Positions 41,945-47,626 of a stretch of 64,000 nt of DNA are shown here, in pieces (the first letter of the stretch is position 1; every line of letters begins with the position of its first letter). Location of the stretch: the NCBI GenBank assembly GCA_963720755.1, contig CAVRGP010000002.1:64001-128000 (forward strand). The letters run 5' to 3'. This DNA is from an uncultured Chloroflexia bacterium (lineage in GTDB: Bacteria; Chloroflexota; Limnocylindria; Limnocylindrales; CSP1-4). A program made the position numbers and the translations under genes. The notes beneath the pieces were generated by a model that was not told the origin of the DNA, searched no databases, and worked only from the letters and a program-made list of their open reading frames with translations.

Positions 41945-42057
41945 CGGTCGTCGGCGCCACCGGGATCGTCGGCCCGACCAGCGTCGACCGCCCTCGTTCG
42001 GGACCCGTTGTACCCTAAGCGCCCCTTCCCGTCCCCAGCATGCAGGACCGATCAGCG

Positions 42058-43437
42058 ATGGCTCCCGTCGACCCGACCTCGTCCATCCCTGCCGAGCCGG
42101 TCGTGATCGCCGATCCGGTCGAACCGACCGAACCCGGCCTACCCGACCCGCCCGAGCCGGTTGCGTCAGCCACCGTCCAGCCGCGGCGGATCCCGCTGCT
42201 GGCGATCTCGATCGCCCTGGTCGCGGTCATGGCCGGAGCGTCACTGTTCCTGTCGGGCTACTCGCTCGGGCGGCAGGCCGCGTCCGACCCCGGGACGCCA
42301 GCGGCCGATTCCGAGGCGTTCCAGCCCTTCTGGGACACCTACCACATGATCGCGGACCGGTTCGCCGGCGGTCCGGTCGATCGGGAGCTCCTCATCCAGG
42401 GCGCGATCCGAGGGATGATCGACTCGCTCGGCGACCCATTCTCGGCGTATCTGACCGCGGATGAGTACCGCCAGAGTCTGCAGGGGATCAGCGGCCAGTT
42501 CGAGGGGATCGGCGCCGAGATCGGCACACAGGCCGGTGACGGGACCGCGGGCTGTACACCGCTGGGTCCGTCGTGCCGACTGGTCATCACCCGGCCCATC
42601 CCGGGTTCACCGGCCGAAGCGGCCGGGCTGGCTCCGGACGACATCGTCGTCGAGGTCGATGGGAGGTCGGTCGACGGGCTGACCGTCGACGGGGCCGTCC
42701 AGCTGATCCGGGGGCCGAAGGGTACCGACGTGACCCTGACCATCCAGCGCGGGACGGGCGCGCCGATGGACCTGGCGATCACCCGCGACGTCGTCCAGCA
42801 GCAGGAAGTCGCCAGCAAGGTCCTGGCCGACGGGACCGTCGGCTATGTCAAGGTCGCCGGGTTCTCGGACGCCTCCGCCGACCAATTCGTCGAGGCGCTG
42901 ACAGCTCACCTGGCCGCCGGGCGGACAGACCTCGTCCTCGACCTTCGCGGCAACCCGGGTGGGTACGTCACCGCCGCTCGCAAGATCGCCAGCCAGTTCA
43001 TCGCCTCCGGGCCGGTGTTCTGGGAGCAGGACGCCCAGGGCCGGCAGGTCGCGACGAACGCGCTAGGCGGCGGGATCGCCACCGATCCATCGATCCGTCT
43101 CGTGGTCCTGGTGGACGGCGGGAGCGCATCCGCAAGCGAGATCGTGGCCGGGGCCTTGCAGGACACGGGCCGGGCGACGCTGGTCGGCCGTCAGTCGTAC
43201 GGCAAGGGTACGGTCCAGCAGTGGCAGGAGCTGAGTGGCGAAGGCGGTGCGTTCAAGCTGACGATCGCTCGGTGGCTCACGCCCGACAAGCGCTGGATCA
43301 ATCAGGTCGGCCTGACCCCGGACGTCGTCGTGACGCTCCCCGATCCGGTGCCGGCCGGCTCGGATCCCGACCTGGACAAGGCGATCGAGATCCTCGGCGG
43401 GGCCGCTCAACGGGGTTCCGATCGCCTCGCCGCGTGA
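42058..43437 (+). CDS. S41A carboxyl-terminal processing protease (PDZ)
   Basis: FEGIG, DLRGNPGG, SASASEI, GKGTVQ; N-terminal TM. Confidence 0.94.
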   Translation: MAPVDPTSSIPAEPVVIADPVEPTEPGLPDPPEPVASATVQPRRIPLLAISIALVAVMAGASLFLSGYSLGRQAASDPGTPAADSEAFQPFWDTYHMIADRFAGGPVDRELLIQGAIRGMIDSLGDPFSAYLTADEYRQSLQGISGQFEGIGAEIGTQAGDGTAGCTPLGPSCRLVITRPIPGSPAEAAGLAPDDIVVEVDGRSVDGLTVDGAVQLIRGPKGTDVTLTIQRGTGAPMDLAITRDVVQQQEVASKVLADGTVGYVKVAGFSDASADQFVEALTAHLAAGRTDLVLDLRGNPGGYVTAARKIASQFIASGPVFWEQDAQGRQVATNALGGGIATDPSIRLVVLVDGGSASASEIVAGALQDTGRATLVGRQSYGKGTVQQWQELSGEGGAFKLTIARWLTPDKRWINQVGLTPDVVVTLPDPVPAGSDPDLDKAIEILGGAAQRGSDRLAA

Positions 43438-43446
43438 CGGCCACTC

Positions 43447-43475
43447 TTGCACTCCAGGAAAGCATCGAGTACGGT
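43447..43475 (+). promoter_or_regulatory. Sigma70-type promoter upstream of small ORF and smpB
   Basis: TTGCAC-N17-TACGGT. Confidence 0.65.
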
Positions 43476-43503
43476 TCGCGGGAACGAAAGGAGGTGATGT
43501 GCA

Positions 43504-43554
43504 GTGAGTGACAGTATGCCTAGCTGCACCACCTCGCAGGAGATGGCCGTCTAG
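43504..43554 (+). CDS. Putative 16-aa peptide MSDSMPSCTTSQEMAV
   Basis: 11-nt perfect SD AAGGAGGTGAT at 43488-43498, GTG 5 nt later, TAG 43552-43554. Confidence 0.55.
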   Translation: MSDSMPSCTTSQEMAV

Positions 43555-43583
43555 TCGGACACCCTGTGGGTGGTACGCAACTC

Positions 43584-43613
43584 GGACGCCGGCCCGCACT
43601 CGGGCCGGCGTTC
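43584..43613 (+). terminator. 13-bp GC-rich hairpin (terminator/attenuator-like, weak U tract)
   Basis: GGACGCCGGCCCG-CACT-CGGGCCGGCGTTC. Confidence 0.6.
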
Positions 43614-43642
43614 GTGCGCCCAGCCCGAGAAGGAGCCATCCC

Positions 43643-44110
43643 ATGCGCGACGAACACACCGTCGCCCTCAACCGAAGAGCCCGCCACGACTTCACGATCG
43701 ATGAGACGTTCGAGGCCGGCCTCGTCCTGACCGGGACCGAGATCAAGTCGATCCGGGCCGGGAAGATCACCCTGTCGGACGCGTACGCGCGGGTCGAGCG
43801 AGGCGAGGCCTGGCTGATCGGTGCGCACATCGCGCCCTTCGAGGGCGGCAACCGCTACAACCATGAGCCCAAGCGGACGCGCAAGCTGCTCCTCCATCGC
43901 TCGGAGATCGACGAGCTGCTGGGTCGAGCCAAGGCCAAGGGCCAGACGATCGTGCCGCTCCGGCTGTACATCGACCCGAAGGGTCGAGCCAAGGTGGAAC
44001 TCGGGCTGGCGCGCGGCAAGCAGCTCCACGACCGGCGTCGCGACATCGCCGAACGCGACTCCCGGCGCGATGTCGCGCGCGAACTGGCCGACGCCCAACG
44101 CGGTCGCTGA
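43643..44110 (+). CDS. smpB: SsrA-binding protein
   Basis: NRRARHDF, EAGLVLTGTEIKSIR, RKLLLHR, GKQLHDRR; SD AAGGAG. Confidence 0.97.
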   Translation: MRDEHTVALNRRARHDFTIDETFEAGLVLTGTEIKSIRAGKITLSDAYARVERGEAWLIGAHIAPFEGGNRYNHEPKRTRKLLLHRSEIDELLGRAKAKGQTIVPLRLYIDPKGRAKVELGLARGKQLHDRRRDIAERDSRRDVARELADAQRGR

Positions 44111-45240: not shown

Positions 45241-46533
45241 TCAGCGGAGGGTGCCGACCGCCCGGACGCTTCGGAAGGCGCGACTCACGCGCGATGGTCG
45301 GACGCTCACGCCGGCGCTGCCGACCCCTTCGGCGGTCTCGGTCGCTTCGGCGGATCCGGCCACGCTGGCCTGTGCATACAGCACCACGCCGATCGCCGAG
45401 GTCGCCGCGCACAGGAGCAAGCCAGTCGTCACGTCGACGATCCCGAGTTGAAGCAACGCGCTCATGGCGAAGGCGGCGATGATCCCACGGGCACCGGTCA
45501 CGGCATTCCAGCCGGCCATCGCGGCCGCCCTCGAATCGATCGTCGTGTGGTCGCTGACCGCCGCGGCGATACCGACATCGATCGAGGCACTCCCGGCGCC
45601 GGCGCCGACGGCCGCGATCCACAGGACCCGGACATCGGGCGCCAGGGCGTAGGCGACGAGCGCGACCAGCCCGAGCATGCTCCCGTACCGCATCGCGACG
45701 AGCGGTCCATGGCGGTCCGCCACGGCACCCCACAGGAGGAAGAAGAGGGTGGTCGCGCCGGCCGTCATGATCCCGATGATCCCGACATCGGACAGCGACA
45801 GGTCGAGTCGATCCACGTTGACGATGGCGTAGAGCGGCACGGCCGCGATCAGGCCGCCACCGTAGAACCCCTGGGCCACCGCGATCCTGGCCAGGATCGG
45901 TCGCTCGCGAAGCTCCCGGACCGAATCGCGGGCGGAGAACGCCCTGGGGCGGGGCGCCGTCGGGGCCCGAAGACCGACATAGGCGGACGCACACACCAAT
46001 CCGAACAGGCCGGCCAGGGCCACCGCCGTCAGGCCGCCGAACTGGTCCGCGATCAGGCCGCCGAGCAACGCCGCGAGCGCCGCGGCAGCAGCCTTCGCCG
46101 AACCGGTCACCCCGACCAGTCGCCCCCGGATCCGGGCCGGGTACATCGACCCCCACAGGCCCAGGTAGAACGGGCTCGACAGCGACAGGCTGAGCCAGAA
46201 CACGACCGTGACCGCGATCAGGATGGGTGCGGCCGCCGACATGACCAGGAGCAGAAGCGACGCGGCTCCGACGCCGCGGATGAGACTCAGTTGACCCGGC
46301 GAACGGGGGCCGACCCGACCCGCGAACGCGCCGAGCAGGTTGGCCACGAACGGCGCGGCCGCGAGCGCGGCGAGGCCGATCGGTTCGAGACCCGCTCGCC
46401 GGGCGATCGTCGGCAGGAGCGTGGTGATCAGCGCGACCGTCACGCCGACGCCGACGGCGGCCACGAGGTCGAGGGCGAGGTTGCGCCCGACCGAGCGCTG
46501 TTGCACGGACGGATGGAAATGCGGCCGGATCAC
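45241..46533 (-). CDS. MFS transporter
   Basis: ~12 TMs; YPARIRGR, GAVADRHG motifs; GTG with SD GAGGT. Confidence 0.88.
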   Translation of the reverse strand: MIRPHFHPSVQQRSVGRNLALDLVAAVGVGVTVALITTLLPTIARRAGLEPIGLAALAAAPFVANLLGAFAGRVGPRSPGQLSLIRGVGAASLLLLVMSAAAPILIAVTVVFWLSLSLSSPFYLGLWGSMYPARIRGRLVGVTGSAKAAAAALAALLGGLIADQFGGLTAVALAGLFGLVCASAYVGLRAPTAPRPRAFSARDSVRELRERPILARIAVAQGFYGGGLIAAVPLYAIVNVDRLDLSLSDVGIIGIMTAGATTLFFLLWGAVADRHGPLVAMRYGSMLGLVALVAYALAPDVRVLWIAAVGAGAGSASIDVGIAAAVSDHTTIDSRAAAMAGWNAVTGARGIIAAFAMSALLQLGIVDVTTGLLLCAATSAIGVVLYAQASVAGSAEATETAEGVGSAGVSVRPSRVSRAFRSVRAVGTLR

Positions 46534-46556
46534 GACGTACCTCGAAGCAGCCCGTC

Positions 46557-46665
46557 CGGCCTGCGAGGTGAGCTGTCGGGCTCGGCGATGGGTCCGCCGT
46601 CGCGTCTGTCGCGATTTGCCCCGAGGATCTGGGTCCCCCGTCCTCCACGAGGAGGTTCGGCCATC
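46557..46665 (-). ncRNA. c-di-AMP (ydaO/yuaA) riboswitch
   Basis: Minus strand GCCGAACC-hairpin-CGGGGGACCCA...GGGGCAAATC...CCGAGCCCGACAGCTCACCTCGCAGGC matches ydaO consensus blocks; extended -10 TGnTACTGT at 46670-46678. Confidence 0.85.
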
Positions 46666-46725
46666 GCAAACAGTAGCAGCATGCTGCCAGGTCGTCGCGC
46701 CATCCATTGGTCAGGGGCGCGACTC

Positions 46726-47251: not shown

Positions 47252-47626
47252 GGGGATGTGTGGTTTCGACAGGGCCTGGCTACCGGAGAACGCGAGCCGA
47301 GGACGCCACTGGGCCTCGTAAATCACGTGGCAAAAAGAAGTACCTGGCAACCGCCAGTCGACTCTCGCCCTCGCTGCTTAGGCAGTAAGGTGAGCGTGGA
47401 AGCTGCCTCCGCCTCGCGGGTAGTGGAAGCGTCATGCAGCGAGGCTGCGATCCGGACAAGCGTCACGTAGTCCGGAGTCAAGCCCGATCTAGGGGCACGT
47501 GACTGGACCGCCCGGCAGGGTGCCGATGCTCGTTCGGGCGGTCGACGACAAACCATCGGACACGCTCGTAGTGGTTTCCGGCGAAGGGTTCTGGACGGGG
47601 AGTTCGACTCTCCCCCATCTCCACCA
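47252..47626 (+). ncRNA. ssrA: tmRNA (one-piece), tag (A)GNRQSTLALAA
   Basis: GGGGATG/CATCTCC-ACCA acceptor with G3.U; T-arm GGGAG-TTCGACT-CTCCC; tag ORF 47346-47381; -10 TAGCAT 47217-47222. Confidence 0.96.

Follow-up and report, generated by a model that had tools for sequence, protein, structure and literature searches.

A conserved promoter, Shine-Dalgarno sequence and short reading frame upstream of smpB in Chloroflexota

Anatomy of the unit

We analysed a stretch of 64,000 nucleotides (the window) from an uncultured Chloroflexia bacterium of the order Limnocylindrales (assembly GCA_963720755.1, contig CAVRGP010000002.1, positions 64,001 to 128,000), in which the intergenic region between a gene for an S41/PDZ peptidase (42040-43437; Pfam Peptidase_S41, E = 1e-46) and smpB holds a compact unit on the plus strand at 43447-43621. 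As read from the sequence, the unit consists of a promoter, a Shine-Dalgarno (SD) sequence, a GTG-started open reading frame (ORF) of 16 codons and a series of hairpins, the last of which has a 14-bp GC stem; downstream of it, smpB (same strand) has an SD of its own, AAGGAG at 43630-43635, and an ATG at 43643, and extends to 44110 (Pfam SmpB, E = 3.7e-58). An earlier note on this DNA, made from its letters alone, had pointed to these parts, at coordinates that proved exact, and proposed a translation-sensing leader or attenuator for SmpB, a small RNA (sRNA) or an unannotated peptide gene. The unit is conserved far above its flanks, and this self-contained arrangement of promoter, SD, short ORF and hairpins is real across the class. 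To our knowledge, the control of the levels of SmpB-tmRNA and of back-up rescue factors is largely unknown outside arfA of E. coli.

The promoter (43447-43475) comprises a −35 element TTGCAC at 43447-43452 and a −10 element TACGGT at 43470-43475, separated by 17 nucleotides, and these are the sites that the earlier note had picked out. In 60 sequences from the window's own family (f1; f2, f3, f4 and f5 denote other families of its class) the elements are kept at a fixed distance from the SD, with the TTGC of the −35 element and the T, the A and the final T of the −10 element at least 80% conserved. A consensus promoter scan made no call at 43447-43475, and the consensus promoter and terminator scan of the region was empty; the promoter was missed because TACGGT agrees with the consensus at only three of six positions. 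Where the window has its promoter elements, f4 has TGCTAGCAT and f5 has TTGACG, and families outside f1 carry TTGACA-N17-TAnnAT at the equivalent place, the form in other classes being TTGACA-N17-TACAAT. Given the position of these elements, the transcript would start at about 43481-43485, some 5 nt ahead of the SD.

The SD had been described as an 11-nt complement of the canonical 16S 3′ end and as the strongest noticed in the window. The match is in fact 13 nt long: the extended sequence GAAAGGAGGTGAT at 43486-43498, which includes the 11-mer AAGGAGGTGAT at 43488-43498, is complementary throughout to the 3′ end of the genome's own 16S rRNA (...GGATCACCTCCTTTCT). The 11-mer occurs four times in the 3.0-Mb genome and once in the window, and the 13-mer three times in the 3.0 Mb (in the unit, within the 16S gene and at the start of a gene on contig C15), which supports the claim that this is the strongest SD of the window. 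The copy on C15, near 274953 on the minus strand and the only other one outside rRNA, lies just upstream of a 63-codon ORF, 5 nt from its ATG, and this ORF directly follows another coding region.

At 43499-43507 an invariant GTG is followed by CAG TGA (Met-Gln-stop), and this TGA overlaps the GTG with which the mini-ORF starts. The first GTG, only 4 nt past GGAGG, is a candidate start codon. The triplets GTG CAG TGA are found in f1 and f4, whilst GTG TAA or GTG TAG stands in many loci of families f6, f25 and f29 (the equivalents in L103-L124); a GTG right after the SD with so early a stop would form a ‘start-stop’ or two-codon minigene overlapping the main start. The mini-ORF itself (43504-43554), already seen in the earlier note and confirmed here by translation ((M)SDSMPSCTTSQEMAV*), runs for 16 codons from GTG to a TAG stop and encodes MSDSMPSCTTSQEMAV.

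Several RNA elements overlap the mini-ORF and follow it. In the minimum-free-energy fold 43491-43505, with the SD and the start region, pairs with a segment at 43523-43535 inside the ORF that contains CACCACCTC, and we call this helix (43491-43535) P1. An internal SD-like GGAG (43539-43542) starts 13 nt ahead of the stop codon. Local folds of 28 diverse sequences place the TAG (43552-43554) in the loop of a stop-codon hairpin (43536-43567), formed by GCAGG at 43536-43540 and CCTGT at 43563-43567. An alternative small hairpin, CACCC-TGT-GGGTG at 43560-43572 (43560-43573 with the following G), overlaps the 3′ strand of the stop-codon hairpin. The 3′ hairpin (43576-43621) has a 14-bp stem of 43583-43596 with 43601-43614, to which CGCA at 43576-43579 paired with TGCG at 43615-43618 is added; its tail in the window is GTGCGCCC, with no T tract. 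A frame open in phase with smpB reaches 45 codons upstream over the unit (43508-43642, plus strand), and it is no real N-terminal extension because its length varies in relatives, where the open frames are of 151-215 amino acids (aa).

Conservation, reading frame and RNA structure

Upstream of smpB the unit is almost unchanged in all 23 same-genus loci with enough sequence, and in these loci the flanks and the spacer to smpB, unlike the unit, cannot be aligned. A sister family with genomes of about 1.1 Mb has a diverged version with the same order of parts and a T-tract terminator in six of six loci, a count that leaves out one further locus in which the upstream sequence is too short. An exact single copy of the 19-mer core AAGGAGGTGRTGTGCAGTG was found in 186 of the 201 genomes from the order, spread over 31 of 32 genera, and a reversed-pattern control gave no match; with up to two mismatches allowed, the core is in 133 of 151 genomes of the class. 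The counts over the class, over the phylum and for RF02471 (both below) take in some genomes flagged as unpublished, none of whose sequence was used. Further f1 loci (10 of 10) and loci of three other families in the class (20 of 20) likewise have smpB behind the unit on the same strand, and the unit precedes smpB in all 59 class loci that were read; ssrA lies behind smpB in the three f2 and f4 loci checked. We have here a deeply conserved, unannotated element before smpB (smpB-ssrA in sister families), which is among the best conserved non-coding stretches of these genomes.

The short frame is maintained in a way that the indels make visible. In 60 unique f1 sequences the mini-ORF is 14, 15, 16 or 17 codons long, the distance from the start codon to a CACCACC anchor takes only the values 17, 20, 23 or 26 nt, and the distance from the anchor to the stop is 25 nt in 60 of 60 (stops TAG 49, TAA 8 and TGA 3). 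The length classes turn up in different f1 genera and therefore reflect several independent indels, all of which kept the frame. For f4, where the start is GTG or ATG and single-nucleotide changes occur ahead of it, a 13-codon ORF is still open in 10 of 10 loci, and the start codon stands at an SD-appropriate spacing in every family locus examined. The indel pattern indicates that the reading frame is under selection in f1. Of the unique ORFs, 44 of 46 in f1 and 86 of 97 over the phylum also have an SD-like GGAG or GAGG that starts 9-18 nt before the stop.

The encoded peptides vary far more than their frames. The f1 pattern is M.D....CTTS.E..., f2 has MSIDSCTTASREVGE and f4 has MSSSCHATTEAVR (13 aa, ...ATTEAVR), the f3 peptides are 23-28 aa long and end in TEVIAx, and those of f25 (24 aa, ...HTFQLRG...) and f6 (23 aa, ...GSNGVTAV) are different again. 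Within f1 the last four or five residues vary freely (QELRA, PEAVA, AEVGL, SGADT and others; the window peptide ends SQEMAV), and the N- and C-terminal halves do not share a frame in 3 of 10 f3 loci and 2 of 3 f17 loci. Since the peptide differs between families whilst the frame is kept, it is a short frame with a defined end that appears to be selected, not the peptide, and the act of translation probably matters, not its product. The likeness of the -MAV end to a degradation tag, remarked on earlier, was not borne out: a degradation tag or a mimic of the tmRNA tag is ruled out by the variability of ...QEMAV in f1 and by the genome's own tag, which ends ...LALAA (the presumed tag frame, chosen by the analyst, reads GNRQSTLALAA*). 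A type I toxin or other hydrophobic small protein is likewise ruled out, as the window peptide is polar.

The segment 43478-43650 folds with a z of −4.3, none of 200 shuffles being as stable, and its minimum-free-energy fold contains the stem between SD and coding sequence; the opposite strand folds well too (z = −3.3), as expected for hairpins. Covariation was counted over pairs in 49 f1 sequences (alignment A1). P1 has 13 pairs that are 99.5% paired, nine of which never vary, and none has a compensatory change. For the stop-codon hairpin, whose loop always holds the stop in f1, compensatory changes were found in five of the six outer pairs (such as GCAGG/CCUGY, GUCGG/CCGAC, GCGGG/CCCGC and GAAGG/CCUUC), and for the 3′ hairpin in 5 of 13 pairs, with 99.7% of cells paired. 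The covariation score was reached by none of 500 shuffles, and 96.9% of cells were paired versus 35-46% in slid controls.

The stop-codon hairpin and the CACCC/GGGTG hairpin overlap and are therefore mutually exclusive helices just past the ORF, and another genus, with GUCGG...CCGAC...GUCGG, shows the same logic. In the f1 alignment the GGGTGG motif (43568-43573) has an invariant G at each of its two 3′ positions and at least 90% conservation at the remaining four; no single GGGTGG structure can be counted because its pairing partner differs between genera. Both of the further hairpins that the earlier note drew past the ORF are thus present, the 3′ stem being 14 bp where 13 had been given, and the small one has a covarying competitor. 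A T tract follows the equivalent of the 3′ hairpin in f2, f3, f4 and other classes, and is absent from the window and from most f1 copies.

Relatives of the unit in other lineages

Relatives of the unit are spread over the phylum and stand before other genes. A single copy of the 16-mer GAAAGGAGGTGRTGTG was found in 79 of the 301 genomes sampled from across the phylum, and in none of the 29 phylum loci that carry it outside the class is smpB found within 1.5 kb. Among these 29, 24 combine a strong promoter and an SD with an ORF 23-31 codons long, hairpins and a terminator that has a T tract, one of the 24 being incomplete at the end of its locus. The other five, L094 (incomplete at the locus end) and L090-L093 (another downstream layout), were not counted as members, nor was L128, which is inside a coding region. 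The outside-class unit is followed by birA, with the Pfam domain BPL_LplA_LipB in 8 of 8 genes tested, or by greA, which had GreA domains in 2 of 2 and has a lysS-like frame behind it. In families f6, f12, f17 and f63 this gene often begins only 12-40 nt past the terminator (birA at 12-40 nt in f6, f12 and f63, greA at 25-35 nt in f17), a spacing that holds no promoter. Judged from these comparisons, the unit is not specific for smpB and is older and wider than its linkage to that gene.

In L090-L093 (families f11 and f35) the 16-mer begins a different short ORF, of about 30 codons in L090, upstream of a gene for a protein with a lipoprotein-like N-terminus and with no obvious terminator; these loci may represent a further branch of the family or may resemble it by chance. 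Genome G524 (f25) has two copies of the unit, one of which (L129) lies before a birA-like frame, and for the other (L118) the nearest frame behind is on the opposite strand.

An Infernal scan against Rfam gave no family at its gathering score, either on the window unit or on 18 related loci, so that the earlier note's remark that it knew of no matching family holds at curated thresholds. The only family to touch the locus was RF01867 (CC2171), at 16.0 bits against a gathering cut-off of 75 (E = 0.23 over 321 nt and 0.51 genome-wide); the locus is also the best match of this family in the whole genome, and the true members L171 and L152 score 91 and 88 bits. The window unit has the RF01867 architecture of a 5′ extended SD, a GUG-started short ORF and a 3′ GC hairpin, and shares with CC2171 the sequence CGAAAGGAGGUGAU, the GUG start and the short ORF, which has 14-27 codons in CC2171. 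However, the CC2171 complementarity to 16S rRNA extends to 17 nt (versus this genome's 16S end), its peptides (MSHCHQ..., MSRVILE... and MSxxKRCHLAGIAR) are unrelated to that of the window, and the SD-like motif precedes the stop in only 31 of 75 ORFs at loci with the RF01867 consensus 19-mer. At least 119 stretches of the species collection, mostly from Alphaproteobacteria, contain this 19-mer, and its loci have a unit-like layout with ORFs of 12-27 codons.

A second family, RF02471 (Ms_IGR-5; cut-off 45 bits), gave no match at the window locus at E values up to 10, and its best match in the genome (20.1 bits, C15:62839-62972) lies inside a coding region and was judged spurious. In the class to which a Streptomyces genome belongs, 107 of 151 genomes have a single copy of RF02471 that passes the cut-off, and a Methylomirabilis metagenome-assembled genome (MAG) with one of the RF01867 19-mer loci also passes the RF02471 cut-off, at 67.7 bits. 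In 29 of 30 RF02471 loci, the remaining one of which could not be placed, there is a 12-codon ORF that ends ...T[RC]EV[AT][AV]x and has GAGGTG 9 nt before a mostly TAG stop, and a GGAG or GAGG 9-18 nt before the stop was counted in 16 of 16 actinomycete ORFs.

RF02471 resembles the window unit in several ways: its extended SD (GGAAGGAGGTGGTCC or GAAGGGAGGTGGTCC) lies close to the promoter, its start codon stands 10-12 nt past the SD core, its ORF is very short and fixed in length with an SD-like motif ahead of the stop, the stop sits in a small hairpin (seen by eye and uncounted), and a long 3′ GC hairpin follows. The Streptomyces copy and the window both have (A/G)TGAGTGAC at the start of the ORF and ACGCA...TGCGTCC flanking the 3′ hairpin, and the f3 peptides of the window's class end in TEVIAx with the same geometry. 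On the other hand the window ORF has 16 codons and not 12, ends SQEMAV with no REVAA, carries its GGAG 13 nt before the stop and has its anti-SD-like segment inside the ORF; the window copy also lies directly before smpB, whereas the Streptomyces copy stands alone between unrelated genes. The window unit, RF01867 and RF02471 may be either homologous or convergent.

The literature that we consulted files both CC2171 and Ms_IGR-5 as sRNAs of unknown function. RF01867 has been seen by Northern blot in Methylorubrum (bioRxiv 10.1101/2022.01.24.477521), and RF02471 has been validated by RNA-seq in S. lividans (PMC8079986) and described as an sRNA transcription unit in S. avermitilis (PMC8780764). 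PMC4974804 reports ribosome footprints on Ms_IGR-5 in M. abscessus and M. smegmatis. A search of the main texts of this literature, with the original Caulobacter and M. smegmatis discovery papers lying outside it, found no function, ORF description or link to a rescue gene for either RNA. The window unit is a new family absent from Rfam or a far branch of these two orphan sRNA families, and its mini-ORF is apparently undescribed in the literature searched.

The genes behind the Rfam look-alikes were read as the first ORF of at least 90 codons behind the unit in 73 RF01867 19-mer loci, a crude gene call with many ORFs that have no Pfam match. A protein of 137-149 aa with an RF-1 domain, ArfB-like by size and domain, is encoded behind the unit in 8 of the 73. 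Among loci with an MSRVxLE-type peptide, mostly of Rhodobacterales, a tblastn search placed an ArfB-like gene downstream on the same strand in 11 of 14, plus one short contig. RNase R (RNB and CSD2 domains) follows in both Bosea loci and a Smr-domain gene in one Methylomirabilis MAG. DUF188 (YaiI/YqxD) is encoded on the same strand behind the CC2171-like units L148, L161, L162 and L172, from Xanthobacteraceae and Ancylobacter; at a fifth locus, L160, DUF188 is on the opposite strand. The remaining genes behind 19-mer loci are assorted. Rescue or RNA-quality genes thus stand behind the unit in at least four separate lineages, with smpB(-ssrA) included, a count in which the genomes are related and the categories were picked after the data had been seen. 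The association needs a proper census, because related genomes are not independent and the categories were chosen post hoc, and birA, greA and unrelated genes elsewhere argue against a simple rescue-gene rule. This possible link across phyla is the most interesting lead of the analysis.

A possible role in the expression of smpB

The distance from the 3′ hairpin to the ATG of smpB is 28 nt in the window and at most 40 nt in 16 of 87 loci of the class (7 of 10 in f4, where a T tract follows the 3′ hairpin). Such a gap is too short for a promoter and an SD, and therefore smpB must be transcribed through the unit in those genomes. Metatranscriptome contigs from four runs in four studies cover relatives of the unit. 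Two of these RNA contigs (X1 record 3 and X2 record 8) span the unit into smpB with a spacer of different length, and three, from three studies, end at positions equivalent to 43617-43620, a weak hint. They are to be read as hints only, because they come from relatives and the libraries may contain DNA; all 24 sequencing runs hold only small shares (0.04-0.06).

We tentatively favour, with less than even confidence, the reading of the unit as a leader that senses ribosome occupancy, with a translated mini-ORF and a hairpin through which transcription continues into smpB. The reading starts from the anatomy and conservation of the unit, the maintenance of the frame, the two covarying hairpins, the lack of space for another smpB promoter and the wider family, and it supposes translation of the mini-ORF in this genome, a hairpin at which transcription ends or pauses, and read-through that is under regulation rather than constitutive. 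The smpB mRNA would then have the separately promoted mini-gene as its 5′ leader. With a transcript start some 5 nt ahead of it, the 13-nt SD would load ribosomes onto the 16-codon frame, and these ribosomes would dwell at the TAG in the loop of the covarying hairpin, behind the SD-like GGAG. Their occupancy, whether initiating, pausing at the stop or queuing, might pick among the exclusive helices (P1, the stop-codon hairpin and the GGGTGG hairpin). RNA polymerase would have to get past the long GC hairpin to reach smpB 28 nt on, so that the choice of helix could set the amount of transcript or of translation that reaches smpB, and the supply of SmpB might follow the state of the ribosome pool.

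Leader-peptide attenuators of the trpL type, and the antibiotic-sensing kinds represented by ermK, vmlR and the upstream ORF of whiB7, have a promoter, an SD, a short translated ORF, alternative hairpins, a GC hairpin with or without a T tract and a promoterless gene, and the sequence of the window unit has candidates for these parts in the same order. As with the genes that attenuators regulate, smpB has no promoter of its own at the gaps given above. The window differs from such attenuators in having no run of regulatory codons and no antiterminator that we found to compete with a terminator, in an SD far stronger than is typical and in that leaders of its type serve unrelated genes (smpB, birA and greA).

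A second point of comparison is the control of arfA by trans-translation in E. coli (PMC10107115), which works through a non-stop mRNA, a hairpin within the ORF removing the stop; brfA of B. subtilis is of the same type. The likeness is in the idea of feedback, by which expression of a rescue factor depends on the experience of ribosomes on a special short message. The differences are that the stop is kept in the window and in 60 of 60 f1 sequences, that the hairpin lies at least 28 nt past the stop and that the sensed ORF is separate from the rescue gene. Non-stop feedback of the arfA and brfA type was rejected, the stop codon not being lost.

A number of results weigh against a sensing leader of smpB. 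In most other classes of the phylum birA follows the unit, and unrelated genes stand beside it in Streptomyces and most Alphaproteobacteria, and therefore a role tied to smpB is not general. The idea that the ORF folds back over its own SD fared unevenly: the stem is present in the minimum-free-energy fold, but the mean SD pairing probability in f1 is 0.72 versus 0.71 with dinucleotide-shuffled downstream sequence, a value that 584 of 1200 shuffles reach. Pairing of the SD is weaker than in shuffles in f3, f25, f29, f6 and f63, and above shuffled tails only in f2 (reached by 2 of 100 shuffles) and f4 (48 of 200). We therefore rejected sequestration of the SD as a selected feature, P1 being no more than chance would give in a GC-rich RNA. 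A pairing of the mini-ORF end with the smpB start, seen in the minimum-free-energy fold of the window, was unconvincing on duplex energies (cognate −16.8 versus non-cognate −15.2 kcal/mol, SD of these energies 3.4).

We found no helix that competes with the 14-18-bp 3′ hairpin, and a switch between terminator and antiterminator was not demonstrated. The window hairpin has no T tract (TGCGCCC) and therefore may not terminate, in which case the unit would be a structured 5′ untranslated region (UTR). The mini-ORF MSDSMPSCTTSQEMAV has no run of any regulatory codon or repeated residue, and all expression support comes from contigs of relatives or of other phyla. What stands of the SmpB leader proposed in the earlier note is the class-wide position before smpB, the selection on the frame, the read-through geometry, the bridging contigs and the presence of rescue genes elsewhere; specificity for smpB and masking of the SD beyond chance do not.

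Three other explanations draw on the same material. The unit could be a stand-alone sRNA that acts in trans or binds ribosomes and has a 5′ end that pairs with the 16S tail; smpB would gain from it by leaky read-through, and the ORF would be incidental or only stabilise the RNA. We regard this as possible but doubtful. It would account for the unit's own promoter, the T-tract terminator in most families, the differing neighbour genes, the three RNA contigs that end at the hairpin and the peptide halves that are out of frame in 3 of 10 f3 and 2 of 3 f17 loci, and the look-alikes RF01867 and RF02471 are catalogued as sRNAs. Yet no target-pairing region is known, the f1 indels preserve the frame with a fixed stop position, the 12-codon length is invariant in 29 of 30 actinomycete loci, the start codon always has an SD-appropriate spacing, and PMC4974804 reports ribosome footprints on Ms_IGR-5. 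Moreover, in the 16 of 87 class loci with no space for an smpB promoter the unit is at least the leader of that gene.

That same geometry, with smpB 28 nt on, a 3′ hairpin that has no T tract in the window and two RNA contigs that bridge to smpB, would also suit a constitutive promoter with a structured, stabilising 5′ UTR of smpB, in which the upstream ORF is tolerated and nothing is sensed. Such a leader leaves unexplained the unit before birA or greA, or alone, in other lineages, the retention of the 13-nt SD and of the frame, and the T-tract terminators of f2, f3 and f4, and we consider it improbable. A gene for a functional 16-residue micropeptide seems to us slightly less probable still. 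The strong SD, the ORF kept open, the in-frame indels and synonymous changes within the genus (ATC/ATA, GAC/GAT, ACG/ACC/ACA and GTC/GTT) are what a coding gene would show, and there is a partial likeness of the peptide ends across phyla (MSD...EMAV in the window, MSDTRAREVAAG in Streptomyces and ...TREVAAx in actinomycetes). However, the sequence differs between families of one phylum (f4, f25 and f6), the C-terminal four or five residues are free to vary in f1, the residues that are conserved fall on RNA motifs (CACCACC, which is anti-SD-like, and GAGGUG) and the frames break in f3 and f17, so that of the proposals in the earlier note the unannotated peptide gene has become an unlikely one.

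The reading of the unit as a sensing leader can be extended to a class of mini-ORF RNAs across phyla, ‘ribosome-traffic sensors’ that set the levels of rescue and quality-control factors. CC2171 and Ms_IGR-5, both orphan sRNAs in Rfam, would belong to this class, and their function would have been missed since they were filed as non-coding. We put this forward as a speculation that is unlikely as it stands. The proposed common parts are a maximal SD, an ORF whose length is fixed within a lineage and equals about one to two ribosome footprints, an SD-like motif some 9-13 nt before a mostly UAG stop in a hairpin loop, and a terminator, and such RNAs would report the pausing or queuing of ribosomes at termination. 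Their targets would be SmpB-tmRNA here, ArfB in loci of the Rhodobacterales type, RNase R in Bosea and the Smr nuclease in Methylomirabilis. Were this so, two orphan Rfam families would acquire a function, and feedback on ribosome rescue could be tested in culturable relatives, namely Rhodobacterales (arfB), Streptomyces and M. smegmatis (Ms_IGR-5), and Caulobacter and Methylorubrum (CC2171). Even with no regulation, a phylum-wide RNA or mini-gene family that is missing from Rfam is worth annotating.

The partner of SmpB is encoded nearby. A full-length tmRNA gene lies at 47252-47626 on the plus strand, 3.1 kb downstream (120 bits in Rfam; ARAGORN gave no match). Two genes separate it from smpB in f1, and it is directly behind smpB in f2 and f4. 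In the interval from smpB to the tmRNA gene there is a c-di-AMP riboswitch on the minus strand (46543-46672; RF00379, 70.4 bits), ahead of a long minus-strand ORF at 45241-46707.

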